DNA of 64,000 nucleotides from Gammaproteobacteria bacterium CG11_big_fil_rev_8_21_14_0_20_46_22 (GCA_002796245.1 PCWT01000048.1:5790-69789), one strand, 5' to 3'. Positions 3,720 to 55,449 are shown, counted from the first letter of the stretch. Program-made: numbers and translations. Notes: a model not told the origin generated them from the sequence alone.

Positions 3720-4899
3720 TCAATTGTTTGCCGACTTTTTCGAAAGCAGCAATCGCTTTATCTAAATCCGCACGCGTTAAACCAGCCGACATTTGTGTAC
3801 GAATACGGGCTTTTTCACGAGGCACCACCGGGAATGAAAAGGCGATAACATACACGCCTTCTTTTAACATTGCATCGGCAAAGGTTTTAGCAAGCTTAGC
3901 ATCACCCAGCATGACGGGAATAATGGCATGATGGCCCGGCACCAGCTCAAACCCCAATGCTTGCATTTTTTCTCTGAAATATTGGCTGTTTTCACGCAAT
4001 CTTTGACGATACTCTGGTTTTTCTTTAAGCAACTCAATCGCGCGCACCGAAGCTTTCGCAATCATCGGGGCGAGTGAATTTGAAAACAAATACGGGCGTG
4101 AACGCTCGCGAAGCCAGGTAATAATGTCTTTTCGGCCGCTGGTGTAACCGCCGGATGCGCCACCTAAAGCTTTGCCCAGTGTGCCAGTAATAATATCGAC
4201 CCGACCTTCAACACCACAATACTCAGGCGTACCGCGCCCATGTTCGCCCACAAAACCCACAGCATGTGAATCATCAACCATGACTAATGCGTTGTACTTA
4301 TCGGCCAAATCACAAATTGATTTAAGGTCAGCCAAGATACCATCCATAGAAAAAACACCGTCTGTCACAATCAACTTAAAACGCGCGTCAGCCGCCGCTT
4401 TTAACTGCTCTTCAAGATCAGCCATATTGTTATTTTTGTAGCGAAAACGCTGCGCTTTACATAAGCGCACGCCATCAATAATACTCGCGTGATTCAATTC
4501 ATCGCTGATGATTGCATCTTCAGGACCCAACAATGTTTCAAACAATCCTGTGTTCGCATCAAAGCACGATGAATATAAAATGGTATCTTCAGTCCCCAAA
4601 AACTCACTGATCATCTTTTCTAATGTTTTGTGAACACTTTGCGTGCCACAAATAAAACGCACAGAAGCCATGCCATAGCCATAGTGGTCTAAAGCCTGTT
4701 TTGCGGCTTCAATGAGAGCAGGATCATCAGCAAGCCCAAGATAATTATTCGCACAAAGGTTTAGTACCTTCTCGCCCGAGTCGACCTTAATAGAGGCGCT
4801 CTGTGGTGAAGTAATCACTCGTTCGCCCTTATACAAGCCAACTTCTTTCAAGCCTTCAATTTCGGTATGTAGGTGTTTTAAAAACTCGGTGTTACTCAT
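3709..4899 (-). CDS. kbl: 2-amino-3-ketobutyrate CoA ligase (glycine C-acetyltransferase)
   Basis: High similarity to E. coli Kbl along its length ([32 protein letters not shown]). The start ATG is nested in the last codons of the upstream tfuA-like gene. Confidence 0.93.
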
Positions 4900-6136
4900 G
4901 CTGCTCTCCTATGAGATATTGATAGGCCTGAAGGACCCAACGACGGCTGTCCATAATAATAGGAATATCCAACAAATCAAAGCCATTTGTAAGCACTGCA
5001 TATTCAAATAGTGACAAGTACTCAACAAACAGGGGCAAAGCCTGCGTTTCATCCAAATCATTATTCTTAAGCCACTGCAGCGTGGCCTCACGCTGTTTAA
5101 GGCCGTGGCGTTTTCTAAAGCGATTAAAAAAAGCTTGAGCCATACCTGGCGAAAGACTTACCTTGATATCACGATAATAGCTATAAATAAGCGCAAACGC
5201 TTTTGCGATCAACCTAGCCTCAACACCCTTCTCAACATCACGATATAAAGCATAAAATTTTTCAAATTGTGTTTCAGCGTATTCTGTCGATAAAGTTGAA
5301 AAACCCTGAGACCGAATCTCATGTTCGATCTGCAGCACTTTTGCCAAATCAATCAATCGCTGTTTTTGTGCATCTGAACACCCGCACAAAGCGCGCTCAG
5401 TCTCAGGGAGCCAATCATAGTTATTGTCAAACGGCCGACTTATGGCTTCACGGTAAATACGCTTAGTAAAGTAGCTCGGCAGCGCCTGCGGCTTTTTTAT
5501 TTTTGAGCGGATGGGGGTTTGATGAGCAAGCGAAAGTGCCGCTCGCGCATCACAGGCCTTTTGATCGACAGTGTACTTTTTAAAAATCTCGACCGAGAGC
5601 CCAAGCGATGTTAACGTTTGATACACATCACGCTGGTAATACGGTTGTTGCTTAAGCGCATCAATAACCTTCTGAGCATCAATCATCTCAATAGCTTGTT
5701 TTTTTATGGCGTTTTTTAGCGTAGCCCGCACATTTACCAAGGGGACAACCCTTGATTGAAACCCAGCTTCCTGGCTTGAATGCGGCAACGAAACCTCGTC
5801 GTCACCATCAATAAAGCCTGAGTGATACCATTGAAAAATCTCGCCCACACCACGCATACCCTCATCACAGAGCTCAGCAGCACGCAAAGCACCCATGCTC
5901 GCTGCCCCCCAAACTTCAACACCCGAGTCCAGGGCGAATAAAATTTCTTTATGCCATACTGAAGCAGTTTGCTCGAACAAGCCATCAATAATAATTAAAC
6001 GCTTCGGCGATAAGCTCATCAGTTTAAACACATCACCGCAACGTACAGGGTCTGAAAAACAGGCTTCTGGTAAGCATTCTTTTGCCTCCTGCCGGGAAAG
6101 TGTTGGGCCCAAAAAAACGATCGTATCTGTACTCAT
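4892..6136 (-). CDS. tfuA: TfuA-like protein (YcaO partner), N-terminal TfuA domain plus a ~200-aa C-terminal extension
   Basis: N-terminal TfuA-domain hallmarks: [46 protein letters not shown]. Its start overlaps the ycaO stop by 4 nt (ATGA). Confidence 0.8.
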
Positions 6137-7233
6137 ACACTAACTCCTGGTGCAATAAGCTGCACAACAGCAATCGCATCATCGGGTTTTGTGTAAACTA
6201 AACGGTAAATATCGTGTGAAATTGAGGCAAGCAAATGTGTCTGCATCGCTTTAAACGATTGAAACAGCATTGATGATTGTGTTGTGTAATCGATTGTTGC
6301 TTTAAAATTAATCGATTGATTTTTCTGCTCATACAGGGTGTCGACCACATCATCTCGCGAACCTGAAATCAAAGTTAATCGCGACTGAACAGCCTCTGTG
6401 AGCGCACGACTCAGGGCGATATCTTTATTGACGTGTGCACCATAGCCCGAAAAAACACCAACACGTCGAAAAAAGCGCTCGTCAAACAGCGTGGCCATAT
6501 AGCTTGGCATCGTGTTTGCAGTAGAGCTTACATCCACTATGACAAGCGACAGACCCTTTTCCTGCAAAGCCTTTATTCGATCGCGAAGAGGTGGGCAATC
6601 AATAGTATTCAATTTAATCGCACGATGCGCTTTTTCTGCATCAGAGAGACGGTGATAACGATAGGCATTCATACGTTCAATGATTTCAAGTAAAGCATGA
6701 CAACTTGCCTCTTCTAGATTATTACCCGAGGCCAAACCCGTCGTTGTTCGCTTAAAGAGCGTGTTTTCCAGCGTGCATTCGGTTAAATCAAATGAAATGG
6801 CTGCGCGAGGAATATAATACACCTCACCGCTCAAACAATGTCTTAGCGCTGTCCAGGCAATTGGCAAGTTCAAAAGATCATCGTGTTTAAATGTGCCTTG
6901 CTGAAAAACATCAGGACTAATGCAAGCATATTCATGGCTAAGCGCATGGTAGCTTCCAACAAGGTCAGACGGTGTTTGCTCAGCGTAGTAGTGTTCAATC
7001 GCTTCCATGTACGCGCTACACATCGACAACTCAGGCGTTAAACCTTTACCCTGCGAGGTGCTTAAATTTTTAGAGCGCGGGCGAATACAAGTATGAACCG
7101 GCAAACCCACATCATCCAAACCGGTTAAATCCGCAATACGTGAGATGCCCGCCTGTTTTGCATACGGCTTTAAACAGGCCAAGGTTTCTTCTGGGGTTCT
7201 GGCACGCAATGTCCCGCCAACATCAATAATCAC
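6133..7233 (-). CDS. ycaO: YcaO-domain protein of the TfuA-associated type (GTG start)
   Basis: N-terminus GTLRARTPEETL...GISRIADLTGLDDVGLPV...IRP is typical of TfuA-associated YcaO proteins. The ORF is about 366 aa. It is translationally coupled to the upstream E1 gene and the downstream tfuA. Confidence 0.8.
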   Translation of the reverse strand: MIIDVGGTLRARTPEETLACLKPYAKQAGISRIADLTGLDDVGLPVHTCIRPRSKNLSTSQGKGLTPELSMCSAYMEAIEHYYAEQTPSDLVGSYHALSHEYACISPDVFQQGTFKHDDLLNLPIAWTALRHCLSGEVYYIPRAAISFDLTECTLENTLFKRTTTGLASGNNLEEASCHALLEIIERMNAYRYHRLSDAEKAHRAIKLNTIDCPPLRDRIKALQEKGLSLVIVDVSSTANTMPSYMATLFDERFFRRVGVFSGYGAHVNKDIALSRALTEAVQSRLTLISGSRDDVVDTLYEQKNQSINFKATIDYTTQSSMLFQSFKAMQTHLLASISHDIYRLVYTKPDDAIAVVQLIAPGVSV

Positions 7234-8339
7234 TAATAACTCGACTTATGAGGCTCAAAGTCTTTTATCCAAGCGATAATGCCACCTTGTAAATTATACA
7301 CATCTTTAAGTCCGCGATTTTTCAGCCAGTACACTGCCTGTGCAGAGCGCCCCCCTGAGCGGCAATATATGACGAGTGGTGACTTGAATTCGCTGACATC
7401 CATTTCTCTAATGTCCGCTAAAGGCACGGCTTTATCGCCATCGATTTGACAAATGTCTCGCTCCCAAGCTTCACGCACATCGATTAAAGTAAAAGCTTTC
7501 CCTGAGTCAAACCAGCTTTTCAAAGCTTCACACGTCAACACAGGAATGGCATTGGCTTTCTTGGGGGCTTCAGATAAATCTTTCAATGGTTTATGTAACT
7601 GACAAGTTGGGCAATCTTTTCGTGTGATGATAGGATGACGCTTCATCTGCATATTCAAAAGATCCAACTGAACAAAACTATTGTTGAGTTTTTCTGGCAA
7701 ATTAAGCAAGTGTTTGATCGCCTCGGTGGCAGCCAATGTACCCAAAACGCCCGGCACCGTACCCAATACACCGGCTTGTGCACAATTAGGTATGACACCT
7801 TCTGGTGGCGGGTTGGGGTATAAACAACGGTAACAGGGCGAGCTTTGATGACTTAGAGCGATCAACTGACCCGAAAACTGATAAATGCTGGCTGAAATTA
7901 AGGGTATCTTTTTTTGTGCGCAGGCATCAGCAACCAAGTAGCGTGTTTCATAATTATCGCTACCATCAATCACCAGGTCATAACCGTCTAACAGAACATC
8001 AATATTCGCTAAACTTAAGCGATCATTAATTGGAACAAGCTCACAAGCCGTATTAAGCGCAAACAGCTTATCGCGTGCGCACTCAACTTTTGCACGCCCT
8101 TCATCCCTCTCTGAGAACAACACCTGCCGCTGTAAGTTTGATAGCTCGACACTATCGTCATCAATAAACGCAAGCTTACCTACGCCACAAGCCGCTAAAT
8201 ATAATAACGCCGGTGAGCCAATCCCGCCGGCGCCAATACAAAGTATCGAGGATTGTTTTAATGTTTCCTGACCGGCTCGACCTATTTTCTCTACAGAGAA
8301 GTGCCGCGCATAACGAAGGTTTTCAGCTTGAGTGAACAT
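7233..8339 (-). CDS. MoeB/ThiF-type E1-like adenylyltransferase with C-terminal rhodanese domain (MoeZ-like sulfur-carrier activase)
   Basis: Rossmann motif GAGGIGS, CxxC...CxxC zinc motifs, and a C-terminal rhodanese active site CRSGGRS. Confidence 0.8.
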   Translation of the reverse strand: MFTQAENLRYARHFSVEKIGRAGQETLKQSSILCIGAGGIGSPALLYLAACGVGKLAFIDDDSVELSNLQRQVLFSERDEGRAKVECARDKLFALNTACELVPINDRLSLANIDVLLDGYDLVIDGSDNYETRYLVADACAQKKIPLISASIYQFSGQLIALSHQSSPCYRCLYPNPPPEGVIPNCAQAGVLGTVPGVLGTLAATEAIKHLLNLPEKLNNSFVQLDLLNMQMKRHPIITRKDCPTCQLHKPLKDLSEAPKKANAIPVLTCEALKSWFDSGKAFTLIDVREAWERDICQIDGDKAVPLADIREMDVSEFKSPLVIYCRSGGRSAQAVYWLKNRGLKDVYNLQGGIIAWIKDFEPHKSSY

Positions 8340-8602
8340 TATCCACCCGAAACCGATGTGATAAGCTCAAGCTCATCACCCGAGCTAAACGTGACATCAT
8401 CTAAATCGTCGACTAACGGCTTGCCATTGTGGTACACATTTAAAAACCCGTGAAGCTCATCGCCTTGATACATGACACGGAACAAAGCCGGCTCATGCTC
8501 ATGAAGGTAAGCCTTCAAGCTTGACATTGAGTTCACATCTAATGTCTTCTCACGCCAGTGGCTAAAACGCTCTAGTGCTTCGGGTAATAATAACTTGATC
8601 AT
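8339..8602 (-). CDS. MoaD/ThiS-family beta-grasp sulfur-carrier protein ending in Gly-Gly
   Basis: The 87-aa product has the N-terminus MIKLLL and the C-terminus SGDELELITSVSGG-stop, which is the MoaD/ThiS signature. Its Shine-Dalgarno sequence AAGGAGG lies in the last codons of the upstream methyltransferase, and its stop overlaps the E1 start. Confidence 0.65.
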   Translation of the reverse strand: MIKLLLPEALERFSHWREKTLDVNSMSSLKAYLHEHEPALFRVMYQGDELHGFLNVYHNGKPLVDDLDDVTFSSGDELELITSVSGG

Positions 8603-9271
8603 TCAAACCTCCTTTATGGCGAACGTTAAGCCATCGCCAATTGGCAAAATGACAGTCTTTAAGCCGGGGTGCTGAGCCAAGGCTGTGTTACACGCCAGTA
8701 TATTTTTTAGCAAGGTATTGGGTTTGGCTTGACTGATCACCTCACCTTTCCACAAAGTATTATCCAAAAGTAAAACTCCACCCCTGGGTAACAAGTCAAA
8801 GCACGCTTCTGCGTAATACAAGTATTTTGACTTATTCGCGTCGATAAAGCACAGGTCAAACCGCTGCTGATCTTGCTTTAACTGCAGCAAAGAAGCTCCA
8901 GCTTCACCTTCTAGGCAGGTAATTTTATTCGCCATGCCAGCCTTTTCCCAAAACGGCCGACCAAAATCAGGCATTTCAGTGTCAATGTCACAAGTGATAA
9001 TTTCACCGTTCACAGGCAAGGCCATAGCCATGGCCAGGGTCGAAAAACCTGTGAAGGTGCCAAGCTCTAAGACGCGCTGTGCCCCAGAAAGCTTAATCAG
9101 CATTTGTAAAAAAGCGGCTAAGTCCATGCTGGATTGCATCTGCCCTTTCGGCAAAGAAGCTGTTTCCGCATGAAGTTCGAGTAAAATCGGATCCAGCGGC
9201 GTCATGTGTGCTTCTAAGTAGCCTTGAAGGCCGTCGGGTAAAAGGTGGTTTTGCGTGCTCATAGCGCTCAT
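8603..9271 (-). CDS. Class I SAM-dependent, cation-dependent O-methyltransferase (caffeoyl-CoA OMT / catechol-OMT / TrmR-like family)
   Basis: SAM-binding motif LELGTFTGFS. Metal-binding residues in IDANK and LLLDNTLW are typical of the Methyltransf_3 family. Confidence 0.75.
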   Translation of the reverse strand: MSAMSTQNHLLPDGLQGYLEAHMTPLDPILLELHAETASLPKGQMQSSMDLAAFLQMLIKLSGAQRVLELGTFTGFSTLAMAMALPVNGEIITCDIDTEMPDFGRPFWEKAGMANKITCLEGEAGASLLQLKQDQQRFDLCFIDANKSKYLYYAEACFDLLPRGGVLLLDNTLWKGEVISQAKPNTLLKNILACNTALAQHPGLKTVILPIGDGLTFAIKEV

Positions 9272-9353
9272 AATATCATGCTGGAATCCCTGATAAAAGC
9301 GGCTTTAGAGGCGTGTGTGAATATGTTAGCATCACTCAAAATGAGGATGCACG

Positions 9354-11342
9354 ATGTTAGAAATTTTACCTAAATTCAGTGAGTTAAAAACTCAAACCCT
9401 AGAAGAAACGCTCAACACGCTCATCAAATCCGCTAAAACCGAGATTGAAAAAGCCATACCCCAAAAAGATCTTGGCTTGCTACAGACGATTGAAGACAAG
9501 CAAGAAATGATTAATCGTTACTTCGCCCCCATCTCTGCCTTAAATGCCGGCAAAAGCAGCCCTGAGTTATCCGCAGTCTACCAACACTGTTTAACCACCT
9601 TAAGCCATTTCGGGACAGAGCTTTTACACCATCGTGATCTATTTGAAGCACTGGCCTCAATCGATGAAAACACGCTTAACGAAACAGAAAAAGCCTGCCT
9701 TGCTTATCACCTGCGCGACTTTAAATTAGAAGGCGTTAATCTCGATCAAGGCACTCAAGCTCGCCTAAAAGTGATTAATGAGCGCTTGGCGACACTGTGC
9801 CATCAATTTGAAGAAAACGTTCGACTCAGCACAGAGGCTTTTTGTTTACACATCGAAAGCAAAGAAAAGCTTAGCGGCCTGCCCGCATCCAGTCTTGCAC
9901 TGTGTGCAGAATTCGCAAAACAACAAGGCAAGCCGGGTTACTGTGTCAGCCTAGATTTCCCCATTTATTACGCCATTATGCAGTTCGCTGATAACCGTGA
10001 ATTAAGAAAAACGCTGTATGATGCTTACTCAACACGAGCCTCAAACTTAAGTGCTCACAAAGATCATGACAACGGTTCATTAATGATAGAAATTTTAAAC
10101 CTTCGCCAAGAAATGGCCAGATTATTAGGCTTTAAAGACTACCCAGAATATAGCCTTAAGACCAAGATGGCGAAAGACGCAGATGAAGTCTTAAGCTTTT
10201 TAACACGCTTGTGTAAAGCGGTTAAGCCCAAAGCGCAAGAAGAGCTAGAAACGCTTAAAGTCTTCGCAAAAAAACACGGCCTTGAAACATTGGAAGCACA
10301 CGACATCCCCTATTATGCTGAAAAGCTCAAACAATCGCGCTTTAGTTTTTCAAGCGAAGAGGTACGTCAATATTTTCCCGCTCAAAAAGTGGTTAAAGGG
10401 GTATTTAAAACCGTCGGCCGATTGTTTGCGCTCGACTTTCAAGCTGTCGAACACGCTGACTGTATGGATGAAAGTGTAACCCTATATGAAGTCAAAAGCC
10501 TCTCTAGCGAAACGCTTGCTTTTCTGTATGTGGATCTTTACACGCGACAGGGCAAGCGGCAGGGCGCCTGGATGGCCGAGTGCCATAACCGCCACGTTTT
10601 TTCCGATGGAAGCCTGCAAAAACCCGTGGCGTTTTTAAACTGTAACTTCAACCCCGCAAGCAACAAGACCCCGGCCTTGTTAACCCATGACGACATAACA
10701 ACCTTATTTCACGAACTGGGTCATTGCTTACATCATCTATTGACCGAGGTAAACCTCGCGAGTGTCTCAGGCATTAACAATGTGGCTTGGGATGCGGTTG
10801 AGCTGCCCAGTCAGTTTCTCGAAAACTGGGCCTGGGATTTCACAGTACTCACTGAACTTGCCGAACACATTGAAACGGGTGAAAGCTTGCCTCAAACATT
10901 ATTTGAGAAAATGCAGGCCGCCAAACATTTTAACAACGGTTTATTTCTCGCGCGCCAGCTAGAGTTCGCGTGTTTTGACTTTAATCTGCATCTTCAGCAA
11001 AGCATCAAAACCGAAGCAGATATTCAAGCCGTACTCGATGATGCAAGAGCAAGCATTGCCGTGGTTAAACCGCCTGAAACCAACCGCTTTCAAAACAGCT
11101 TTAGCCATATTTTTGCCGGGGGTTATGCGGCAGCTTACTACAGCTATCTTTGGGCAGAAGCTTTATCAGCTGATGCTTTCTCACTCTTTGAAGAAAGCGA
11201 TTTATTCAATAAAACACTCAGCCAGCGCTACCGAAAAACCATTTTGGCTCAAGGTGCGGTCAAGCCCATGAGCGAATTATTGAAAGCCTACTTACAACGA
11301 GAAACTAAACCTGAAGCACTACTTAAAGCTTATGGGCTATAA
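9354..11342 (+). CDS. M3-family zinc oligopeptidase (oligopeptidase A / Dcp-like)
   Basis: HELGHCLHH zinc motif. The 662-aa length is typical of OpdA/Dcp. A GAGGA Shine-Dalgarno sequence sits 6 nt upstream. Confidence 0.85.
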   Translation: MLEILPKFSELKTQTLEETLNTLIKSAKTEIEKAIPQKDLGLLQTIEDKQEMINRYFAPISALNAGKSSPELSAVYQHCLTTLSHFGTELLHHRDLFEALASIDENTLNETEKACLAYHLRDFKLEGVNLDQGTQARLKVINERLATLCHQFEENVRLSTEAFCLHIESKEKLSGLPASSLALCAEFAKQQGKPGYCVSLDFPIYYAIMQFADNRELRKTLYDAYSTRASNLSAHKDHDNGSLMIEILNLRQEMARLLGFKDYPEYSLKTKMAKDADEVLSFLTRLCKAVKPKAQEELETLKVFAKKHGLETLEAHDIPYYAEKLKQSRFSFSSEEVRQYFPAQKVVKGVFKTVGRLFALDFQAVEHADCMDESVTLYEVKSLSSETLAFLYVDLYTRQGKRQGAWMAECHNRHVFSDGSLQKPVAFLNCNFNPASNKTPALLTHDDITTLFHELGHCLHHLLTEVNLASVSGINNVAWDAVELPSQFLENWAWDFTVLTELAEHIETGESLPQTLFEKMQAAKHFNNGLFLARQLEFACFDFNLHLQQSIKTEADIQAVLDDARASIAVVKPPETNRFQNSFSHIFAGGYAAAYYSYLWAEALSADAFSLFEESDLFNKTLSQRYRKTILAQGAVKPMSELLKAYLQRETKPEALLKAYGL

Positions 11343-11373
11343 AAAAGCCGCGGACTTAGCGGCTTTTAAAAAA
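11341..11373. terminator. Bidirectional rho-independent terminator between the convergent peptidase and transporter genes
   Basis: AAAAAAGCCGCggacttaGCGGCTTTTAAAAAA: a GC-rich stem flanked by an A-run and a T-run. Confidence 0.6.
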
Positions 11374-11379
11374 CAAGGG

Positions 11380-13389: not shown

Positions 13390-13415
13390 AAAAATACTCC
13401 TTATTATTTTGCGAA

Positions 13416-14727: not shown

Positions 14728-14764
14728 GATTCGTATCCTCGCACCCTTTTTCTGGGCTTACAAT

Positions 14765-14780
14765 CTAGGGCGTGTCCCTA
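14765..14780 (-). repeat. Intercistronic hairpin motif CTAGGGCGTGTCCCTA (TAGGG-n5-CCCTA), copy 1
   Basis: Lies between the apaG stop and the apaH start. A second copy with 16 of 17 nt identical is at 43361-43377. Partial copies are at 40687-40694 and near 17461. Confidence 0.4.
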
Positions 14781-14792
14781 AAGTTGTTTTAT

Positions 14793-15176: not shown

Positions 15177-15957
15177 GCGCTTTAATACCGTTACTAAGCT
15201 GAACAAATTCATCCACCGAGACTCTTTCAGGTCTTAAGGTGGGGTCGATGCCGGCATTTTCAATAAGCTTAATATCACAAAAATGTTTTAAGTTATTGCG
15301 CAGTGTTTTTCGCCGCATGGAAAAAGCTTGCTTAACCAGCGCTTCAAAGTGTTTTTCATCGCGCGCATTGCGCTCGCTTTTACCACGGGGCACACCGCGC
15401 AAAATCGCCGAGTCCACTTTGGGCTCAGGCTTAAAGGCACTTGGCGGCACATCCAGCATATAGGTGACTTTAAAATAATACTGCAACACCACACTCAAAC
15501 GGCCGTAATTATTTTCACCGTCTTTGGCACAAATGCGTGCCGCCACTTCTTTTTGCAGCATCACATGCACATCCTGCAGGCGATCAATCATTCTGGCCAA
15601 GGTAAATAAAATGGGCGTGGAAATATTGTACGGAAGATTACCCACCACGCGCAGTGGCTCATCGGGCTTGAAGGCTGCAAAATTAAACGCCAAAACATCG
15701 CCTTGGTGAATCGTAAGTTTTTCAATGGGTTTAATGTGCTCTATCAAATACGCAATCGCATCGCGGTCAAGCTCAATGGCATCTAAATGATTCAAGTGTG
15801 GCAATAAAACTTGTGTCATCGCACCCAGACCTGGACCGATTTCCAACATCACGTCATCGGCTTTGGGTGAAATGATTGCGACAATATCGTCCAGTACTTG
15901 TCGATCTTTTAAAAAGTTTTGACCAAAACGTTTTTTGGCGCGCGGTTCAAATGACAT
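15166..15957 (-). CDS. rsmA: 16S rRNA (adenine1518/1519-N6)-dimethyltransferase
   Basis: FGQNFLKD and EIGPGLGAMT motifs of KsgA. Confidence 0.92.
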   Translation of the reverse strand: MSFEPRAKKRFGQNFLKDRQVLDDIVAIISPKADDVMLEIGPGLGAMTQVLLPHLNHLDAIELDRDAIAYLIEHIKPIEKLTIHQGDVLAFNFAAFKPDEPLRVVGNLPYNISTPILFTLARMIDRLQDVHVMLQKEVAARICAKDGENNYGRLSVVLQYYFKVTYMLDVPPSAFKPEPKVDSAILRGVPRGKSERNARDEKHFEALVKQAFSMRRKTLRNNLKHFCDIKLIENAGIDPTLRPERVSVDEFVQLSNGIKAHEK

Positions 15958-16688
15958 TAGCGACCCAAAATAATTTTCTGCGCAAGCTCGAGTTCCTCAG
16001 GTGTATTGATTTCCAAGGTACCATGTGGAATGGGGCAGACTTTAATTTTATACCCATGCTCTAACACACGAAGCTGCTCTAGTGACTCTGCGGTTTCTAG
16101 CGGTGTTTGTTTTAAAGTCGTGTACGTTTTTAAAAAGTCGGCACGAAAGGCATAGACACCCATGTGATTCAACACCGGTGCATAATCAATCTCTTGGCGA
16201 AAGTAGGGAATGGGCGAGCGTGAAAAATACAAAGCATAGCCTTGCTGATCATAAATCACTTTCACGCGGTGCGGTGTAAAGTAGGCTTTTTCCATGTCCA
16301 ATGGATAAGCCACCGTGGCCATATCCGGCATTTCACCCTCTAAATACGGCTGCAATAAACGTGTGAGCATATCAGGCTCGATAAAGGGCTCATCACCTTG
16401 AAGATTAATGACCACATCCATGTCAGGATACATCGTCGCCACAGCAGCCACGCGATCGGAACCCGTGGGTAAGCTTGGGTCTGTCATCACAGCCTTCCCG
16501 CCAAAGCTTTCAACCGTTTTTATGACTTCTTCGCTATCGGTCGCCACCACCAATTCATTGATGTGCGGACAATCTTTTGCCCCTTCATAGGTGTGCTGAA
16601 TAATCGGCTTTGTACCGAGCATTTGTAGCGGCTTGCGTTTCAATCGTGTTGACGCAATACGTGCTGGAATCACACATAATACTTTCAT
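15957..16688 (-). CDS. kdsB: 3-deoxy-manno-octulosonate cytidylyltransferase (CMP-KDO synthetase)
   Basis: N-terminus VIPARIASTRLKRKPL and overall similarity to KdsB. Confidence 0.92.
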   Translation of the reverse strand: MKVLCVIPARIASTRLKRKPLQMLGTKPIIQHTYEGAKDCPHINELVVATDSEEVIKTVESFGGKAVMTDPSLPTGSDRVAAVATMYPDMDVVINLQGDEPFIEPDMLTRLLQPYLEGEMPDMATVAYPLDMEKAYFTPHRVKVIYDQQGYALYFSRSPIPYFRQEIDYAPVLNHMGVYAFRADFLKTYTTLKQTPLETAESLEQLRVLEHGYKIKVCPIPHGTLEINTPEELELAQKIILGR

Positions 16689-16727
16689 TTCAACTCCTAG
16701 CCCAATCTGGCTTTCGTTTATTTACGT

Positions 16728-17396
16728 TTAAAAATGATACGCAATATTCAAAAAAATGCGCTGAATGCGCGGCATCGTACTTTTCCAAACTTCAGCATTG
16801 GGATCACTCCCTGTTTTTTCTGTTTGGTACCAAGTATAACTATAGCCAAGGCTACTCGACCAATGCGTATTGAAATGATACTTCAAGCCTAGACCAAGCT
16901 CGCCGCCCCAACGATTGAAATCATGTCCTGCCTCAACACTCGTTGTATTGTTATATGTACTGTGTCTGAAGAAGCCACGCTCTAAACCTAAAATAGCAAA
17001 TGGTGTGAAGTGATCATTGATACGCCAGCCCGGTAATATTTCTAGGCCTGCATTCCAATAAAACTTTTTCGTCGAATTGTGCGTTGTACCATAATGTGTA
17101 TGCTTTGCATTATCGTAGGTCACATTGATCTGTGCGGCGAGGTCAAGCGCACGATAAAGATAATCATAGCCAAGCAAGAGCCCCGGTGTAATGCCTCGAT
17201 CATTGTCGGTGCCTTTCATTACCGTATACGGTGAGGATTTCAAGGTCACGCGATTATGAAACCCCGTCATTTGATACGCGCCTTCAAGACCGACATAAAA
17301 GCCACCATGATTATTGACTATCGTTGATCCCGCATAAACGGTACTCATACCCAACACGATTAAAGTTGCAGATAGCGCTTTTAGCATGGGTTTCAC
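16728..17396 (-). CDS. Small outer-membrane beta-barrel protein (OmpW/opacity-like)
   Basis: Signal peptide MKPMLKALSATLIVLGMSTVYA. Alternating amphipathic beta-strands. The C-terminus ends in an aromatic residue (AYHF). Confidence 0.5.
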   Translation of the reverse strand: MKPMLKALSATLIVLGMSTVYAGSTIVNNHGGFYVGLEGAYQMTGFHNRVTLKSSPYTVMKGTDNDRGITPGLLLGYDYLYRALDLAAQINVTYDNAKHTHYGTTHNSTKKFYWNAGLEILPGWRINDHFTPFAILGLERGFFRHSTYNNTTSVEAGHDFNRWGGELGLGLKYHFNTHWSSSLGYSYTWYQTEKTGSDPNAEVWKSTMPRIQRIFLNIAYHF

Positions 17397-17502
17397 CTCA
17401 AATGTTTGTGATTTGAGTATACCGGGTTTACTTGAAATTTAAACCTCATGTTTAGGTAACATCCCTAAAGTCGTTGCTGACACAGCCATTCAAGTTGTTT
17501 AT

Positions 17503-17531
17503 AAAAAAAGCCCCTATTAGGGGCTTTTTTT
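17503..17531 (-). terminator. Rho-independent terminator downstream of groEL
   Basis: AAAAAAAGCCCCtattaGGGGCTTTTTTT. The symmetry means it can work in both directions. Confidence 0.7.
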
Positions 17532-17558
17532 ATATCAGCGAAAAGCGCTGGGTGATGA

Positions 17559-19205
17559 TTACATCATGCCGCCCATGCCGCCCATTCCACCCATGCCGCC
17601 CATACCGCCGCCAGCAGGTTCTTCTTCTCTTGGCATGTCAGTGATCATGCACTCAGTAGTCAGCATCAAACCCGCGATCGACGCCGCTTTTTCAAGTGCT
17701 GTACGTGTCACTTTCGTTGGATCTAAAATACCCATTTCGATCATGTCACCGAACTCGCCTGTCGCTGCGTTGTAGCCGTAGTTACCTTTGGCTTCCAAAA
17801 CTTTGTTCACAACCACAGCCGGCTCGTCGCCCGCATTTTTAGTGATTTGACGCAAAGGTGCTTGAAGCGCACGACGTGCGATCGCAATACCCATGTCTTG
17901 ATCGGCATTGTCACCTTTGACTTTTTCAATGGCTTGCATCACGCGAATCAGTGCAACACCGCCACCGGCAACCACGCCCTCTTCAACTGCAGCGCGTGTC
18001 GCATGCAAGGCATCATCCACACGCATTTTCTTTTCTTTCATTTCAGCTTCAGTTGACGCACCCACTTTGATCACTGCAACACCGCCGGCTAATTTTGCCA
18101 AACGTTCTTGCAATTTTTCTTTGTCGTAGTCAGAGCTTGTGTCTTCGATGTGTTTGCGAATGCTTTCAACACGCGCTTTAATCGCTTTGCCGTCACCTTC
18201 ACCATCGATCACTGTAGTTTCATCTTTTGTGACCACAATACGTTTGGCGGTACCCAAGTCTTCAAGTGTCGACTTTTCAAGGCTTAAACCGATTTCTTCA
18301 GAAATCACTTTACCGCCTGTCAAAATCGCGATGTCTTCCATCATGGCTTTACGACGATCACCAAAACCTGGTGCTTTCACCGCACACACTTTTACCGTGC
18401 CGCGCATATTATTCACAACCAAGGTTGCCAAGGCTTCGCCTTCGACATCTTCAGCAATGATCAATAAAGGATGACCTGATTTAGCCACGCCTTCTAACAC
18501 GGGCAACATTTCACGGATATTAGAGATTTTCTTATCAACCAATAGAATGTAGGGCTTTTCAAGCTCGACAGACATGGTTTCTTGGTTGTTAACAAAGTAC
18601 GGCGATAAATAACCGCGATCAAATTGCATACCTTCGACCACTGATAATTCGTTATCAAAACCCGAACCCTCTTCAACCGTGATAACACCTTCTTTGCCGA
18701 CTTTTTCCATCGCTTTTGCAATGATTTCACCAACAGAAGCATCAGCGTTCGCTGAAATCGTACCCACTTGGGCAATCGATTTATTATCAGTGCAAGGTTT
18801 AGACAAGCTTTTTAAATGCCCAACCGCCGCTTGAACAGCTTTTTCGATACCGCGTTTGATATCCATTGGGCTCATACCCGCCACAACGGCTTTTTCACCT
18901 TCAAGCACAAATTCACGCGCCAAAACCGTGGCCGTTGTTGTGCCATCGCCAGCTTCGTCTGCTGTTTGAGACGCCACTTCTTTGACAAACTGTGCGCCCA
19001 TGTTTTGAAGCTTGTGTTCAAGCTCTATTTCTTTAGCCACAGTCACGCCATCTTTGGTCATCAACGGTGCGCCGAAAGATTTATCAATCATGACATTACG
19101 GCCTTTTGGACCCATAGTCACCGCAACCGCATCAGCCAAGACATTCATACCAATGATCAAATGACGGCGCGCTTCTAATCCATGTTCTACTAATTTAGCA
19201 CTCAT
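17559..19205 (-). CDS. groEL: Chaperonin GroEL (Hsp60) with C-terminal GGM repeat
   Basis: Full-length similarity to Legionella and Coxiella Hsp60. The C-terminus is [14 protein letters not shown]. Confidence 0.97.
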
Positions 19206-19219
19206 AGTTTTCTCCCCAA

Positions 19220-19504
19220 TTATTCTTCAATACCCATGATGTCTTCTTCACGCATGACAACGAATTCTTTGCCATCGATTTTGACATCCGTACCGGCATA
19301 TTTACCAAACCAAACCATATCGCCCGCTTTAACTTCAACAGCCACCAAATTGCCATTGTTGTCATGCTTGCCTTTACCGGCTGCGACCACCTTGCCGCGG
19401 CTTGGTTTTTCTTTTGCATTATCAGGAATCACGATGCCACCGGCCGTCACTTCTTCTTCAAAACGTTCGATCAAAACACGATCGTGTAATGGTCTGAAAT
19501 TCAT
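19220..19504 (-). CDS. groES: Co-chaperonin GroES
   Basis: [14 protein letters not shown] matches GroES. A GGAGG Shine-Dalgarno sequence lies upstream. The ORF-track extension to 19540 uses an upstream GTG. Confidence 0.95.
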
Positions 19505-19533
19505 AGGTTTTTCCTCCAATTGTACAGTGAGTA

Positions 19534-19560
19534 TTAGCACTCAGTGTCTGAGAGTGCCAA
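19534..19560 (-). promoter_or_regulatory. CIRCE inverted repeat (HrcA operator) in the groES 5' leader
   Basis: TTAGCACTC-N9-GAGTGCCAA matches the CIRCE consensus TTAGCACTC-N9-GAGTGCTAA at 17 of 18 positions. Confidence 0.7.
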
Positions 19561-19569
19561 TCATAGGTG

Positions 19570-19600
19570 ATATGGGGTTGAGGTCAAGAAATTTCAAGGC
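19570..19600 (-). promoter_or_regulatory. Sigma32-type heat-shock promoter for groESL
   Basis: On the minus strand: GGCCTTGAAA, then a 14-nt spacer, then CCCCATAT. This matches the sigma32 consensus CCCTTGAA-N13-15-CCCCATNT. The -35 element overlaps the stop codon of the upstream GT-C gene. Confidence 0.55.
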
Positions 19601-21105
19601 CTGCGGCGATAAACCAAAAAATCTTTTGTTTGGTCGGACAAATAATAACCAGCCGCGAATTCACGGTACCTTGGAAAACGGCGCAGTATGTCATTGTAGT
19701 GTCGTTTCCTAAAGAAAATGATCAGTTTAGGGCGCGTACTTTCCAGGGAATCAAAAAACAAATTTTCGGCTTGCCTCACCCAGTAGTGCTGTCTAAGCGT
19801 CAACTTACCTTTAGCTTCAAGCTTTGGTATCGCCGGCATAAATAGCAGCGAGGGTGTTTTGATCGCTGAGTAAAGCCCAGGGTAATTGTTCCAAAGCACT
19901 TCATTTAAACCAATGTTCTCATCCGCCATCAACACAGCACCCTGCTCAACGTGCATTTTTTTGGGTATTTTCAATAAGCGTACATATACGCTTTTATTGC
20001 TGTTGGCTAAGAAAACACCGGTGTAGTTTACTTTTAGGATGACTGAAAGCACGACAGCTATCATAAAAAACAGACTAATAATCAGCATAACCGTTGATTT
20101 AAGCTCGCGCCCAAACGCAAAACCTTTCGCTTTTAAGTCGGCATAGTAATGTCCACAGGTTAAAAATAACATTGCCGTCATGAGAACAATAAAAGGATAA
20201 ATATGGTAATACCAGGCTTTGTGCTGAATAAAATATGCGCCCCATAAATAGCCTGCAGCTGCAATTAAGCAAACACGAGCAAACGGACCTTTTAGGTGGC
20301 GCAAAGCCACACAGGCGAAAAGGAACGCGGCTATCCAAGCGAGACAGGCATTGTAGGAAAGCAACAAAGTCCAACTCGCTTGCCAGAAAGGCAAATAGAG
20401 CGTTGTCACCAGCGGCAACATTTTCGTGTAGTACTCTGGTGTAAAATAAGCGATCAAAACCAGGTAAAGGCAGCCCAACACAAAAAAGCTAACCAGCTCG
20501 ACGCTCAAAAGCACCCGCAATCTTCTGGCGCGAACAGCCGCATAAAATTCAACCAACAATAAAGGCAGCAAAAAGTAAGGCTTAAGAAAAAAACCTAAGG
20601 CAGCAAAGCCAATCACAAGTCCTCGCATCAAGGGGCTTACACTTTTCCCCGTTAACGCGACCGAGCGCATACAAAAATACGGCACAGAAAAAACGATCGC
20701 GAAACATTCTCGCTCACCAAAAATCGTGCCGCTGAGCAAAAAATACCCCACACACAAACCCAAGATAATCGCCTGATATTCTTGAATCGACTTGAGCGAT
20801 TGCTTAATAAAGCGCGCCGAAAGCCACAAAGAGGCAAGGCCGACCAAGTAGTAAAAAAGCAAAAGACTCGCGTGCAAAGAGAGCTGAAAAAGTTTGCTCA
20901 GACCTATAATAAGAAAACCCAGCCAAAGGATTAAAGGTGGGTTCGTTTCAGCAAAGTCGTAATAGTAACGCCCGCCATGAAGCATACTCTGCCCACAATG
21001 CAAAAGCCAAGAAGCGTCCCAGTTCATTAAGCTGTAGGTTTGTATGAAAGTGCTCGCTATGACAATCAAGACGATCCAGGGCAAAATCCGCAATAGACTC
21101 ATCAC
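19594..21105 (-). CDS. GT-C-fold membrane glycosyltransferase (ArnT/PMT_2-like, GT39/GT83 type)
   Basis: The 503-aa product has about 11 predicted TM helices. The first loop carries YDFAETNPPLILW, which is close to the ArnT/PMT motif around EKPPL. Its start overlaps the GT2 stop by 4 nt. Confidence 0.6.
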   Translation of the reverse strand: MMSLLRILPWIVLIVIASTFIQTYSLMNWDASWLLHCGQSMLHGGRYYYDFAETNPPLILWLGFLIIGLSKLFQLSLHASLLLFYYLVGLASLWLSARFIKQSLKSIQEYQAIILGLCVGYFLLSGTIFGERECFAIVFSVPYFCMRSVALTGKSVSPLMRGLVIGFAALGFFLKPYFLLPLLLVEFYAAVRARRLRVLLSVELVSFFVLGCLYLVLIAYFTPEYYTKMLPLVTTLYLPFWQASWTLLLSYNACLAWIAAFLFACVALRHLKGPFARVCLIAAAGYLWGAYFIQHKAWYYHIYPFIVLMTAMLFLTCGHYYADLKAKGFAFGRELKSTVMLIISLFFMIAVVLSVILKVNYTGVFLANSNKSVYVRLLKIPKKMHVEQGAVLMADENIGLNEVLWNNYPGLYSAIKTPSLLFMPAIPKLEAKGKLTLRQHYWVRQAENLFFDSLESTRPKLIIFFRKRHYNDILRRFPRYREFAAGYYLSDQTKDFLVYRRRP

Positions 21106-21818
21106 CTAGGCCCAAACTTAAACATCACTAGCTTTAAAAAATGCGTAAAAAACTTAAGTATTTCACGAAAAGATAATTTACTTTTACCGTGCAAGCGATT
21201 ACCAAATTCAATGGGCACCTCCACGATCTTTGGTTTTTTAAGCTTAACCATTAGCTCAAGACCAATTTTGTAACCAATCGGGCTTAGGGTATTTTTCACA
21301 GCGGCATAGTCACTCTGACGCAAAGCAAAGAAACCCGACAAAGGATCATTAATGCGCACAAGACAACGGCCCAACTGTTTGGCAACCCAAGCATTAATAT
21401 GCCTTAGTCCGCTCCACTGTTCGTCGATTTTGGCTGAATGCACATAGCGGGAACCCAAAACCATATCCGCCCTTTCAAGTACCTCAACCAGTGCCGGAAT
21501 TTTCTCTGGCGGGTGAGAAAGATCAGCGTCCATGCACAACAGGATATCACCCAAGGCTTGATTAAAACCTTCAATCACAGAAAGGCTTAAGCTTCGATTC
21601 GCTTTTCGTACCTTAAGCTTTAACCAGGGATATTGTGCTTGTAATGATGCAACAATAACTTGTGTGTCATCCCCCGAGTCATCGTCAACCAAGATCACTT
21701 CAAAGACTGAAAACTCAGGAGCAATACTTGCCAAACGCTCACACAACGGCGAAATATTCTCTGCCTCTTGATAGCAAGGAATAATGACGGAGAGTCGCTG
21801 TTGCTTTAAATTTTTCAT
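21102..21818 (-). CDS. GT2-family polyprenol-phosphate glycosyltransferase (ArnC/DPM1-like)
   Basis: LSVIIPCYQEAENI...VILVDDDSGDDT is the GT-A DxD signature. The 238-aa size matches the ArnC/Dpm1 family. Confidence 0.8.
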   Translation of the reverse strand: MKNLKQQRLSVIIPCYQEAENISPLCERLASIAPEFSVFEVILVDDDSGDDTQVIVASLQAQYPWLKLKVRKANRSLSLSVIEGFNQALGDILLCMDADLSHPPEKIPALVEVLERADMVLGSRYVHSAKIDEQWSGLRHINAWVAKQLGRCLVRINDPLSGFFALRQSDYAAVKNTLSPIGYKIGLELMVKLKKPKIVEVPIEFGNRLHGKSKLSFREILKFFTHFLKLVMFKFGPR

Positions 21819-21840
21819 GGATACACACTAGCCTAAAAAT

Positions 21841-23202
21841 TTAGGATGATCCAGCGCTTATTAACATAAGAAACAAATACCACCAAGGATGATTTTTAGA
21901 CCGTGTGGCAATCATGTCCGCGTTTAAACGCACGATGATCCAATCAAAAATATAAACCGCTCGAATAAACCCCGGGTAGTCCTCCAAGCTTAAGCCGCCA
22001 GCGTTTAAAAAATGATTTAAATCATCTTGATAAATCAAGCTGCGCTCGTAACGAAAGCGTGTCGAGAATGCTTCAAGTTTTCCAGGCGCAATCAAAAACC
22101 CTTTCCTGTCAACGAGCCGAACCAAAGACGACCATGCCTGGGCTAAGTGTGTTTGAACAAAGGGCTGGGCCTTAGGAAATAATTGCTGGGTGTAGACAAG
22201 GTATAATGGCTGAAGTTTCGATAAGGGCGCTTTTTTAAGCAGCCCTTCACACTCATCAACCAATGATTGATGCACGAGATAATGCTTGGATGATGCTTTA
22301 AAGTGCTCAATGGCTTGGAGCAGCTCATCTGCCTCATTTGCACGCCCATCGTTTACATTGCTTAAAATCAACCATGCTCTAGCTAAATACTGCCAAGCCT
22401 TTTCAGCCTCAAGAACGTGCTCTTTCGCCCAATAGCTTATATGAAATTCTGCGGGCATTGCAGGGTGCTTAATCGACAGGCCCTGTGTCGCAGACAGCAA
22501 AGACAAGGTGGTCATCGCCTGAGTCATTACAGGCTTTTGAGTTTTTCTGCTCTGCTCAATATCCCCTTTTGCTAAAGTTTTGAGTAATAAAATAGCATCC
22601 TCACGTTTAAAGTCTTTAACGCCTGCTTTAAGATATTTTTTGGCTTGAGCTTTGAGCTCAGAATCACGCATTAAGCGAAGTATTTGTGCGGGTTTTCTAT
22701 CTAAGAAAGCTAACGCTTGAGTTGCGTTAATTAGTGCTCTTGAAAGCGCTGGCGATACGTTTTTTTTCGCACATTGTTCTTCAAGGTCATAACGCAAATT
22801 AACCAAGGCGATGGTGTGGGGCGTATACTGCTCATCGTGCAATAAAGCGACCTCGTCATCTCCCGTGAGCCTACCATCGTAAAAATCTTCAAAAATTCGT
22901 CCAACGCCTTTCATGCCGAAATCGCAAAGCTCGGCGGCACGCAGAGCACCCATGCTCGCGGCACCATAGACAGGAATGCCTTGGCCCATCACCCACAAAA
23001 TTTCTTTGTGCCACACACTGGCTTGCTCATAAAAATAGCCGTCGATAATCGCGATCGCTTTCGGTTTTAATCGAGCCGCTGATAACAAATCACCACAACG
23101 CACCGGTGGAAAACACAACGCACAATCTAGTATGGCTTCAACGTCTTGGTGTGCAATACTGGGCCCTGAAAAAACAATAATGTTATCGCTCAGCAAACTC
23201 AT
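21841..23202 (-). CDS. tfuA: TfuA-like protein, second paralog, with a long C-terminal extension
   Basis: [45 protein letters not shown]. It is about 50% identical to the first TfuA over the domain. The ATG chosen here lies 2 nt after the ycaO-2 stop; the track ORF runs further up to 23256. Confidence 0.75.
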   Translation of the reverse strand: MSLLSDNIIVFSGPSIAHQDVEAILDCALCFPPVRCGDLLSAARLKPKAIAIIDGYFYEQASVWHKEILWVMGQGIPVYGAASMGALRAAELCDFGMKGVGRIFEDFYDGRLTGDDEVALLHDEQYTPHTIALVNLRYDLEEQCAKKNVSPALSRALINATQALAFLDRKPAQILRLMRDSELKAQAKKYLKAGVKDFKREDAILLLKTLAKGDIEQSRKTQKPVMTQAMTTLSLLSATQGLSIKHPAMPAEFHISYWAKEHVLEAEKAWQYLARAWLILSNVNDGRANEADELLQAIEHFKASSKHYLVHQSLVDECEGLLKKAPLSKLQPLYLVYTQQLFPKAQPFVQTHLAQAWSSLVRLVDRKGFLIAPGKLEAFSTRFRYERSLIYQDDLNHFLNAGGLSLEDYPGFIRAVYIFDWIIVRLNADMIATRSKNHPWWYLFLMLISAGSS

Positions 23203-23204
23203 TT

Positions 23205-24314
23205 TTAACGCTGGCTCCCAAAAACAAAACCCGGTATTAAGACACTGACAACCCAAATGCCCAAAGCATCAAGCTGCCGATTCATAAAGATCAACTCGTC
23301 AAAACCAGCTTTAGACAGCAACGTCGTTAGCTCAGAAAAGCCGGCCTCATCTTGAGAGAAACCCTGTGTTTCTTCGATAGACTGAAAGGACAAGGTGCCA
23401 AGCTGTGAAACCGCTTGACCACCCTGAACTGCTTGAAAGCCTTTTTGATAATAGTGAGGGAAAATATCATCGCGGCTACCACTGGTGATCGCAACCTTTG
23501 CTTGAATCGCTTCTGTCAGGGATCGCATAAGCGCGTGATTTCGAGTAAAACTTGCACCACTACCCGAAAAACAATCCTGTCGCCCTAAGCCTTCAGAACT
23601 TATCGTACAATAAAAGCTTGGCACCCCGGCTATGCAGTGAATATCCCAAACACGAACCTGAAAGCCTTTAGAAGCACATCGGTTTATCCAATGACATAAA
23701 GCGGGATCATCAATGGTGCTAATATCAAGCTCATATTGTCTTTGTAATTTAGGTAGGCGAGCATTCCACGCCGTAAGCGCATGGCGCTCAATGGCTTCAA
23801 ACATGGCATGGCAGGCGGCAAAGTACCGTGTTTCACCACCACCCATTCCATTACTGCTGATGTGAAAATAACTAAAATCAGACCGCTCAACACTAGAGTC
23901 TATATCAAACACATTTTGGGGCACAAAAAGAGCTTGTGTGTTTTTTCGATGAAGGCGCTCAGCCAAAACCCAAGCGAGAGGTTGATCATGAATATTACAG
24001 AGAAAAGCACTCTGGCAAAATAAAGCTGGATCGACCAAGGCATGTTCATCTTTTAGCGCATTGTAAGCCCCATGAAGCAAGGCTTTGGGAGGGTTCTCTA
24101 AGCAATCGCTCTCAACAGCCTCCATCAATGCGGACAATTTCGCTTGTTCAGCTGTTTGCCCTTTTCCCAAAGCTACCGATAAATGCTTCGCTTGTGGGCG
24201 TATGGCTGAAAAAACGGGCAGACCGATAGGGTCTAGGCGGGTCAAGTCAGCCAGCCTTGTTACACCAAACGTTTGCCTTTGCTCAAGCAACTTTGTTAAA
24301 CAAGGCTGGCTCAA
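23205..24314 (-). CDS. ycaO: YcaO-domain protein of the TfuA-associated type, second paralog (TTG start)
   Basis: GVTRLADLTRLDPIGLPVFSAIRP and overall collinearity with YcaO-1. The N-terminus is about 15 aa shorter than YcaO-1. The start codon is TTG. Confidence 0.75.
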   Translation of the reverse strand: MSQPCLTKLLEQRQTFGVTRLADLTRLDPIGLPVFSAIRPQAKHLSVALGKGQTAEQAKLSALMEAVESDCLENPPKALLHGAYNALKDEHALVDPALFCQSAFLCNIHDQPLAWVLAERLHRKNTQALFVPQNVFDIDSSVERSDFSYFHISSNGMGGGETRYFAACHAMFEAIERHALTAWNARLPKLQRQYELDISTIDDPALCHWINRCASKGFQVRVWDIHCIAGVPSFYCTISSEGLGRQDCFSGSGASFTRNHALMRSLTEAIQAKVAITSGSRDDIFPHYYQKGFQAVQGGQAVSQLGTLSFQSIEETQGFSQDEAGFSELTTLLSKAGFDELIFMNRQLDALGIWVVSVLIPGFVFGSQR

Positions 24315-24445: not shown

Positions 24446-24520
24446 GGGATAAACTCCTTTAGTATAGAACCGTATTATTTTTATGCGCGTATTCTAGCAA
24501 AAACCCGATGAAAATCGCAA

Positions 24521-55443: not shown

Positions 55444-55449
55444 ACGATT

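Follow-up and report, generated by a model that had tools for sequence, protein, structure and literature searches.

Two diverged YcaO-TfuA pairs in a gammaproteobacterial chromosome as probable separate thioamidation modules

Adjacent ycaO and tfuA genes have been described from the archaeal system that thioamidates a glycine of McrA (MA0165/MA0164 of Methanosarcina acetivorans, MJ1094, TfuA structure 6XP8), in which a ThiS thiocarboxylate is the sulfur donor, and from the 'TfuA-related' clusters for thioamidated peptides of the ribosomally made and post-translationally modified type (RiPPs) such as thioviridamide/thioamitides and thiovarsolins (PMC8120280, PMC6511847). The latter clusters fall into 613 gene-cluster families, with more than 1,000 in Proteobacteria, and all characterised thioamidated products come from Actinobacteria; a genome can contain several clusters, tfuA is transferred horizontally, and ThiS genes are found inside clusters (PMC8120280). 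A figure from 2011 that shows F-type conjugative plasmids and integrative elements of Legionella pneumophila and Legionella longbeachae already includes ycaO and tfuA, as genes of unknown function (PMC3218107, Figure 2), and YcaO of the Escherichia coli type is known to thioamidate the ribosomal protein uL16 (PMC13063428). Here we describe two such pairs, YcaO-1/TfuA-1 and YcaO-2/TfuA-2, which are encoded on 64,000 nucleotides of DNA (from here on the window) from the groundwater gammaproteobacterium CG11_big_fil_rev_8_21_14_0_20_46_22 (GCA_002796245.1, PCWT01000048.1:5790-69789). TfuA-1 is 100% identical to a hypothetical protein of this metagenome-assembled genome.

Since there are reports of genomes with as many as six TfuA clusters (PMC8120280), two diverged pairs in one genome are a known kind of system and not surprising. 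Less expected are a recurrent partner, here called protein X, conserved families of precursor peptides and a C-terminal domain shared by the TfuA proteins. We propose, with a probability of roughly 0.7, that the pairs belong to two ATP-dependent modules of the YcaO-TfuA type for backbone thioamidation, each with an evolutionary history of its own. Our statements on carrier, E1 and precursor genes of the host hold for the visible 64 kb of its genome. The related loci (L-numbers) are fetched contigs, several of them metagenomic and some short (2-11 kb), so that what is said of their neighbours is limited to the contig.

Relationship of the two pairs

Both YcaOs belong to PF02624, of which they cover profile positions 1-324 of 325 with scores far over the cut-off of 25.7 bits, and both TfuAs belong to PF07812 (cut-off 30 bits), each with the motifs DG, HKE, SMGALRA.E and DDE (scores in Table 1). 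The closest relative of both YcaOs in the PDB is the thioamide-forming MJ1094 (6PE3/6PEU). By these closest characterised relatives and by the adjacency of tfuA, we class both enzymes as TfuA-associated YcaOs of the thioamide type. The genes of each pair are co-oriented; those of pair 1 overlap by 4 nt and those of pair 2 are separated by 2 nt, the likelier start of TfuA-2 being the ATG at 23202, 2 nt past the YcaO-2 stop, and not the TTG at 23256 with which the mechanical open reading frame (ORF) begins. In an AlphaFold2 (AF2) model of TfuA-1 (pLDDT 93.7, pTM 0.91) the N-terminal half superimposes on 6xp8 with a Foldseek TMt of 0.84, a root-mean-square deviation of 2.4 Å and 36% identity.

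That the pairs are homologous, with collinear YcaOs, and well diverged, as an earlier note on this DNA had claimed, is borne out: YcaO-1 and YcaO-2 are 32% identical over 355 aa (E 9e-50). The TfuA domains are less alike than the approximately 50% given there, the cores being 43% identical over 175 aa by BLASTP and 41% identical over 203 aligned, trimmed columns. Near-identity, the sign of an assembly artefact, was looked for and is absent; on the DNA level the pairs share just one stretch of 96 nt with 72% identity, which rules out a duplication made by the assembly. The GC contents of pair 1 (0.453) and pair 2 (0.447) are that of the window mean.

Neighbour-joining (NJ) trees with a simple distance correction and 200 bootstraps were built from 82 YcaO-TfuA pairs of the fetched loci. 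YcaO-1 groups with the enzyme of L001 (bootstrap 96) and then with those of L003, L072, L079 and L120 (bootstrap 83); YcaO-2 groups with that of L004 (bootstrap 100) and then with those of L005, L006, L030, L073, L088 and L092 (bootstrap 72); the node that unites these two clades has a bootstrap of only 32. When 240 homologues are ranked by identity to the core of either TfuA, the partner in the window comes 151st and 197th. Taken together with the absence of the pair-2 module from a closely related locus and the presence of a pair-2-type arrangement on a plasmid-like contig (both described below), the ranks and the trees argue for two old lineages with separate histories and against a duplication within this genome. 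The description of the pairs as duplicated and subfunctionalised in the earlier note is thus not supported.

A correction also applies to the C-terminal extensions of about 200 aa, which had been called different in the two TfuAs. A profile of long TfuAs matches the 217-aa TfuA from M. acetivorans (6XP8) at positions 5-212 only, and the extension is therefore about 205 aa long in TfuA-1, compared to about 240 aa in TfuA-2. BLASTP detects no similarity between the two extensions. Searches with phmmer lead from both to the same intermediates (P0043 with E 1e-10 from TfuA-1 and 2e-10 from TfuA-2; P0169 with 1e-16 and 1e-7), and hhalign, supplied with disjoint sets of 25 TfuA-1-type and 7 TfuA-2-type sequences, aligns the full extensions with 99.6% probability (E 1.4e-23, 209 columns, approximately 15% identity). 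A hidden Markov model of the domain finds it in half of the bacterial TfuA proteins (41 of 82), the carriers being gammaproteobacteria, alphaproteobacteria, Nostoc, a magnetotactic bacterium of the Nitrospirota and metagenome-assembled genomes (MAGs) of actinomycetes. By these alignments both extensions are one diverged all-helical domain common in bacterial TfuA, and what is likely to be a common misreading is thereby corrected: the long C-terminal region is a single conserved domain and not a set of lineage-specific add-ons. The structure prediction that had been recommended gave for TfuA-1 a confident, all-helical domain (residues 222-410), for which neither Foldseek nor a profile search found a PDB match; Pfam was likewise without a match. 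The sole functional hint comes from the NCBIfam model TIGR04500, 'putative peptide maturation system protein', which is matched by 8 of 16 extensions on their most conserved approximately 60 residues (best E 7e-8). This link, which makes the domain a candidate for substrate handling, and the location of the domain lead us to suggest that it may be a peptide- or partner-binding module.

Table 1. Features of the two YcaO-TfuA modules and of protein X, with positions counted from the first nucleotide of the window.
Feature	Position	Strand	Properties
TfuA-1	4892-6136	-	414 aa; PF07812 142.6 bits; TfuA fold residues 1-~210, helical C-terminal domain ~222-410
YcaO-1	6133-7233	-	366 aa; PF02624 170.2 bits; TIGR03266 E 5e-42; clade with L001/L003/L072
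ThiF/MoeB-type E1 with C-terminal rhodanese (MoeZ-like)	7233-8339	-	PF00899 253.9 bits; PF00581 43.9 bits; loop CRSGGRS
ThiS/MoaD/SAMP-like carrier	8339-8602	-	87 aa, C-terminus ...SVSGG; PF02597 21.1 bits; NCBIfam SAMP1 E 6e-6
O-methyltransferase, S-adenosylmethionine (SAM)-dependent (Methyltransf_3)	8603-9271	-	PF01596 201.7 bits; first gene of the operon; stop abuts ThiS start
TfuA-2	21841-23202	-	453 aa from ATG 23202; PF07812 136.6 bits; core and C-terminal domain with insert
YcaO-2	23205-24314	-	369 aa; PF02624 175.3 bits; TIGR03266 E 3e-34; clade with L004, bootstrap 100
Candidate precursor, 40 aa: MKTQSFNCALTQDLAEDVVHFSTPVIGPVFTSNDLVDQLS	24323-24445	-	AAGGAG ribosome-binding site upstream; C-terminal core conserved
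Sigma-70-like promoter match TTGCGA-18-TAGAAT with TG	24491-24520	-	consensus match only; upstream edge of module 2
Presence/absence segment versus L008	21827-24518	-	2,692 bp: exactly promoter-like site, precursor, YcaO-2, TfuA-2
Protein X	24521-25891	-	456 aa; likely true start the invariant Met9 at 25867 (alignment)

Gene neighbourhoods and protein X

The genes of module 1, from the O-methyltransferase via the ThiS-like carrier, the ThiF-rhodanese protein, YcaO-1 and TfuA-1 on to kbl and tdh, follow one another with overlapping or abutting start and stop codons, the ThiS-like gene overlapping the ThiF start by 1 nt. The homologues of the carrier in eight related loci all end with GG. The E1 protein has the ThiF domain and a rhodanese domain with the active-site cysteine loop, and scores under the NCBIfam equivalog cut-offs of MoeZ and MoeB; its ThiF is closest to the ThiF of L001 and L003 and therefore native to module 1. 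The order ThiS-ThiF/rhodanese-YcaO-TfuA-kbl-tdh is kept in the metagenomic locus L003; L001, where the contig starts inside ThiF, keeps it from that gene onwards. An M3 peptidase, a hexapeptide transferase and PriA are neighbours that recur as well. The O-methyltransferase is not kept at the orthologous locus L003, and in the more distant locus of a Thiotrichales MAG (L072) YcaO-TfuA stand alone between mutM and unrelated genes. Identities between orthologues amount to 44-48% for YcaO, 38-43% for TfuA, 45-51% for ThiF and 33% for ThiS, compared to 75-85% for the adjacent Kbl and 71-78% for Tdh, from which it follows that the housekeeping genes next door change far more slowly than the thioamidation genes.

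The kbl and tdh homologues (2682-4899, minus strand) overlap TfuA-1 by 8 nt and are still found downstream of TfuA in L001 and L003. A participation of Kbl and Tdh in a thioamide pathway was considered and judged to be probably no more than conserved synteny: their genes are coupled to TfuA in the window and in L001, lie 159 nt away in L003 and are absent from L072.

Module 2 is a discrete presence/absence unit, with which insertion and deletion are both compatible. By blastn, nucleotides 1-5777 of L008 correspond to window positions 30304-24519 (80.8% identity) and nucleotides 5792-6207 to 21826-21411 (76.5%); the similarity spans tkt-gap-pgk-pyk-X and resumes at a GT2 glycosyltransferase gene, with L008 5778-5791 standing at the module-2 site. 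Promoter-like matches in the region are no more numerous than in shuffled sequences.

The ORF of the candidate precursor lies 9 nt upstream of YcaO-2; its gene call is present in JGI, ENA and Logan and has no NCBI accession. In L004, of which TfuA is 37% and X 60% identical to the proteins in the window, a 43-codon ORF occupies the same position. The leaders of the two peptides differ and their last 16 residues, PV[IV]GPVFTSNDLVDQL, are near-identical; in the 16 core codons five changes are synonymous and one exchanges Ile and Val, next to flanks that cannot be aligned, which is the mark of a translated peptide under selection. As a short ORF with a ribosome-binding site, located beside modifying enzymes and under purifying selection relative to L004, the 40-aa peptide is taken to be the substrate of pair 2. 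Its conserved core contains no cysteine, and a second copy of it was found in the window neither by tblastn nor by a motif scan. In L005 and L088 YcaO is preceded by looser relatives that have a related hydrophobic-GP-hydrophobic motif. A second peptide family, marked by ..PYSM[NT]K[IV]TLIP.., is encoded after X in L017, L028 and L030, with a weaker SMNKI variant in L079.

Downstream of TfuA-2 the GT2 glycosyltransferase (21102-21818, ArnC-like matches) is followed by a 503-aa multi-pass membrane protein without family match (together 19594-21818, minus strand). Both were considered as tailoring genes of pair 2 and rejected, GT2 in L008 coming directly after X in a locus without the module; our guess is that the two act together in the transfer of sugars via polyprenyl phosphate and have no connection with the thioamide module.

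Protein X, encoded directly upstream of module 2, matches no Pfam or NCBIfam family, and in the papers that were searched no mention of it or of the precursor family was found. A word-based search yielded 9 relatives and an exhaustive search of a library clustered at 50% yielded 1,537 representatives, all of approximately 430-465 aa; the 10 that were looked up are unnamed or 'hypothetical'. The AF2 model is of good quality (pLDDT 84.7) and gave in Foldseek against the PDB only weak matches to cNMP-binding beta-barrels (TMq approximately 0.2). X is found near YcaO-TfuA and genes for small acidic peptides in at least 10 loci: the order X-peptide-YcaO-TfuA of the window is repeated in L004, L005 and a plasmid-like contig from JGI, and a looser linkage of X to YcaO-TfuA is seen in L006, L028, L030, L079, L088 and L120. 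Where no YcaO lies within 10 kb, X recurs beside genes for POT/MFS transporters, methyltransferases, LuxR regulators and ATP-grasp enzymes, and X is often present in two copies per locus.

The JGI contig (sample 3300072015), plasmid-like by its ParA, ParB, Rep3, TraY and RepA_C, encodes in this order a ThiS-like protein, ThiF-rhodanese, X, a 1,339-aa protein, a 40-aa ORF, YcaO, TfuA (522 aa) and a POT transporter, and thus has the pair-2-type cluster in full and in mobile form. A conserved small ORF with the motif ..KLTTTLG..SCA..LPQ follows X after 70 nt in L045 and L046 and after 147 nt in L055; no YcaO or TfuA was found on these contigs of 2-10 kb, a hint that the pairing of X with peptides may not depend on thioamidation. 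An ATP-grasp_4 protein is encoded directly after X in two unrelated loci, L120 (5526-6710, with YcaO-TfuA downstream) and L013 (1837-3090, a 5-kb contig in which no YcaO-TfuA was found). Clustering of the small ORFs around all X loci returned only artefacts from near-identical contigs.

Both YcaO-TfuA sets and all genes of both modules are on the minus strand, 14.6 kb apart, with the housekeeping genes groESL, ksgA, kdsB and apaG between the sets. The window also contains gyrB-recF-dnaN-dnaA and yidC-mnmE-gidA. A probable chromosomal replication origin is located at approximately 54300-55450, between dnaA (52930-54273, minus strand) and yidC (55450-57087, plus strand), where the GC content falls to 0.36 and the GC skew switches sign (at approximately 54-56 kb) from the gyrB-recF-dnaN-dnaA to the yidC-mnmE-gidA side. 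With this origin-type neighbourhood in the window, both YcaO-TfuA clusters are chromosomal, approximately 30-50 kb from the replication origin. Downstream of metK, at 33747-35231 on the plus strand, a 494-aa fusion protein is encoded that has TPR repeats at its N-terminus and a class I SAM methyltransferase domain at its C-terminus.

Proposed functions and alternatives

By analogy with the archaeal system, module 1 (8603-4892) would work as a translationally coupled operon in which the GG-ended ThiS-like carrier is adenylated by the ThiF domain and turned into a thiocarboxylate by the fused rhodanese domain, TfuA-1 hydrolyses the thiocarboxylate and passes the sulfide to YcaO-1, and YcaO-1 uses ATP to activate a backbone amide and swaps its oxygen for sulfur. 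Organisms outside high-sulfide habitats tend to use such a combination of a thiocarboxylated ThiS homologue and the TfuA hydrolase (PMC13063428). The substrate of module 1 would be encoded elsewhere than beside the module. Module 2 (24518-21827) would be a compact RiPP-type unit in which YcaO-2 and TfuA-2 thioamidate the 40-aa peptide, and protein X may take part in the recognition or processing of this peptide.

Lacking a carrier and an E1, module 2 would have to take its sulfur from elsewhere, most simply from ThiS and ThiF of module 1. The earlier statement that only pair 1 has its own carrier and E1 holds within the window. ThiS and/or ThiF are encoded beside YcaO-TfuA in the pair-2-type loci L006, L028, L030, L073, L088 and L092 and on the JGI plasmid-like contig, and the ThiS-like carriers of these loci are all GG-ended. 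Because most related pair-2-type loci carry their own ThiS and/or ThiF and pair 2 does not, it is plausible that pair 2 draws its sulfur in trans from the module-1 carrier and E1. The expectation of at least two distinct substrates also stands: pair 2 has its own conserved precursor directly upstream and none is found near pair 1, and it is very likely that the pairs serve different substrates.

Several points weigh against this proposal of two separate modules. The ThiS-like protein scores with PF02597 just under the cut-off of 22.5 bits, and with SAMP1 it reaches 26.6 bits at a cut-off of 60. No substrate was found for pair 1, there being no conserved small ORF beside it or beside its orthologues in the L001, L003 and L072 loci. 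Another ThiS/ThiF, functionally closer to pair 2, may lie outside the visible 64 kb. Most X loci have no YcaO-TfuA within 10 kb, and X may therefore be unrelated to thioamidation. NJ trees with so simple a distance correction give a crude phylogeny; of the trees that the earlier note had called for, that of YcaO separates the pairs, each with relatives elsewhere, and that of TfuA agrees at the tips and is poorly resolved deeper. Finally, the chemistry of a product cannot be read from the sequence.

The want of a precursor beside pair 1 raises the question whether its target could be a cellular protein and not a RiPP, as is McrA in methanogens or uL16 for the E. coli YcaO. The chromosomal position kept in relatives and an operon self-sufficient in sulfur supply would agree with this. 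We consider it unlikely because the fast divergence of YcaO-1, TfuA-1, ThiF and ThiS relative to Kbl and Tdh is the pattern of RiPP enzymes rather than of enzymes acting on a static protein (PMC13063428), and because YcaO-1 reaches 51 bits with the model of the uL16/S12 type, which has a cut-off of 700 bits. Pair 1 without nearby precursor and pair 2 without nearby carrier and E1 could also complement each other in one pathway, both modifying the 40-aa peptide, each at its own residues, or pair 1 being chiefly the sulfur arm for pair 2, and there are documented clusters in which YcaO or TfuA is encoded several times (PMC8120280). L003 (17 kb), however, keeps the synteny of pair 1 with ThiS/ThiF without X or a similar peptide, and L001 (11 kb) does likewise from ThiF on; the sets are separated by 14.6 kb with housekeeping genes, and the pair-2 module is variably present between conserved flanks, all of which makes a single pathway distinctly unlikely.

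A duplication of one YcaO-TfuA system in this genome, followed by subfunctionalisation and loss of carrier and E1 from pair 2, would explain why the pairs are homologous and lie in one mostly gammaproteobacterial and cyanobacterial clade of 19 long-TfuA-associated YcaOs (bootstrap 60), why both TfuAs have the same C-terminal domain and why the GC content of both pairs equals the window mean. It is nevertheless improbable: each paralogue has many closer homologues elsewhere (TfuA ranks 151 and 197 of 240), the YcaO clades are supported separately (83 and 72) and joined at 32, the pair-2 module is absent from the same site in L008, a relative of 81% nucleotide identity, and its arrangement recurs on a plasmid-like contig. 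The formation of an azoline or amidine by one or both YcaOs, with TfuA in another role, is most improbable; the YcaO superfamily is chemically versatile (PMC13063428) and there are weak matches to SagD-type models (E 1e-21 and 3e-19), but both ycaO genes lie directly beside tfuA and are coupled to it in translation, thioamide-forming archaeal enzymes are the best relatives in NCBIfam and the PDB, no cyclodehydratase partner (E1-like/Ocin-ThiF) or dehydrogenase was detected nearby in the domain search, and the conserved core of the precursor is free of cysteine. We thus prefer two separate modules. Going beyond this proposal, and tentatively, one might suppose that X is an unrecognised RiPP recognition or maturation protein, that together with short acidic precursors and YcaO-long-TfuA, often a POT/MFS transporter and sometimes ThiS/ThiF, it marks a new family of thioamidated peptides in Legionellales-like gammaproteobacteria, partly on conjugative plasmids, and that the helical C-terminal domain of TfuA is the missing substrate-docking element of thioamide-forming YcaO systems.

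Comparison with known systems

Thioamidated peptides are rare. The locus provides an example from a proteobacterium, compact and testable, in which a 40-aa precursor with a sharply conserved core is combined with a YcaO-TfuA pair. The same genome has a separate operon for the full proposed sulfur relay of carrier, E1-rhodanese and TfuA; this arrangement permits a direct test of whether a thioamide module that lacks a carrier is served in trans by one from elsewhere.

Among solved structures and NCBIfam models the archaeal McrA system is closest for both YcaOs and both TfuA cores. In both the archaeal system and the window ycaO and tfuA are adjacent, and module 1 adds the carrier and the E1 required by the proposed sulfur route. 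The window proteins are homologues and not equivalogs of the archaeal ones: with TIGR03266 YcaO-1 scores 144.2 and YcaO-2 118.6 bits (cut-off 365), and with NF033432 TfuA-1 scores 164.2 and TfuA-2 184.0 bits (cut-off 235.2). The host here is bacterial and without McrA, the helical domain of approximately 200-240 aa in the window TfuAs is missing from the 217-aa archaeal protein, and the dedicated small precursor in module 2 is a further difference.

The 'TfuA-related' RiPP clusters likewise have adjacent YcaO-TfuA with a short precursor upstream, and from them module 1 differs in having no precursor. With the E. coli-type YcaO, also from the Pseudomonadota, the backbone thioamide is formed on a substrate that is not encoded alongside, as may hold for pair 1. 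That enzyme, however, has approximately 580 aa and needs no TfuA, whereas the window YcaOs have 366 and 369 aa and a TfuA partner, and reach with the uL16/S12-type model NF040716 50.7 and 20.6 bits (cut-off 700 bits).

Among the matches listed, related loci come from Legionella and Legionellaceae genomes. The Legionella elements drawn in 2011, to which the locus is likened by description and not by sequence, differ from the window copy, which is chromosomal and approximately 30 kb from dnaA; they have in common with it the gammaproteobacterial, Legionellales-type context, and their mobility compares with that of the pair-2-type arrangement on the contig with ParA, ParB, Rep3 and TraY.

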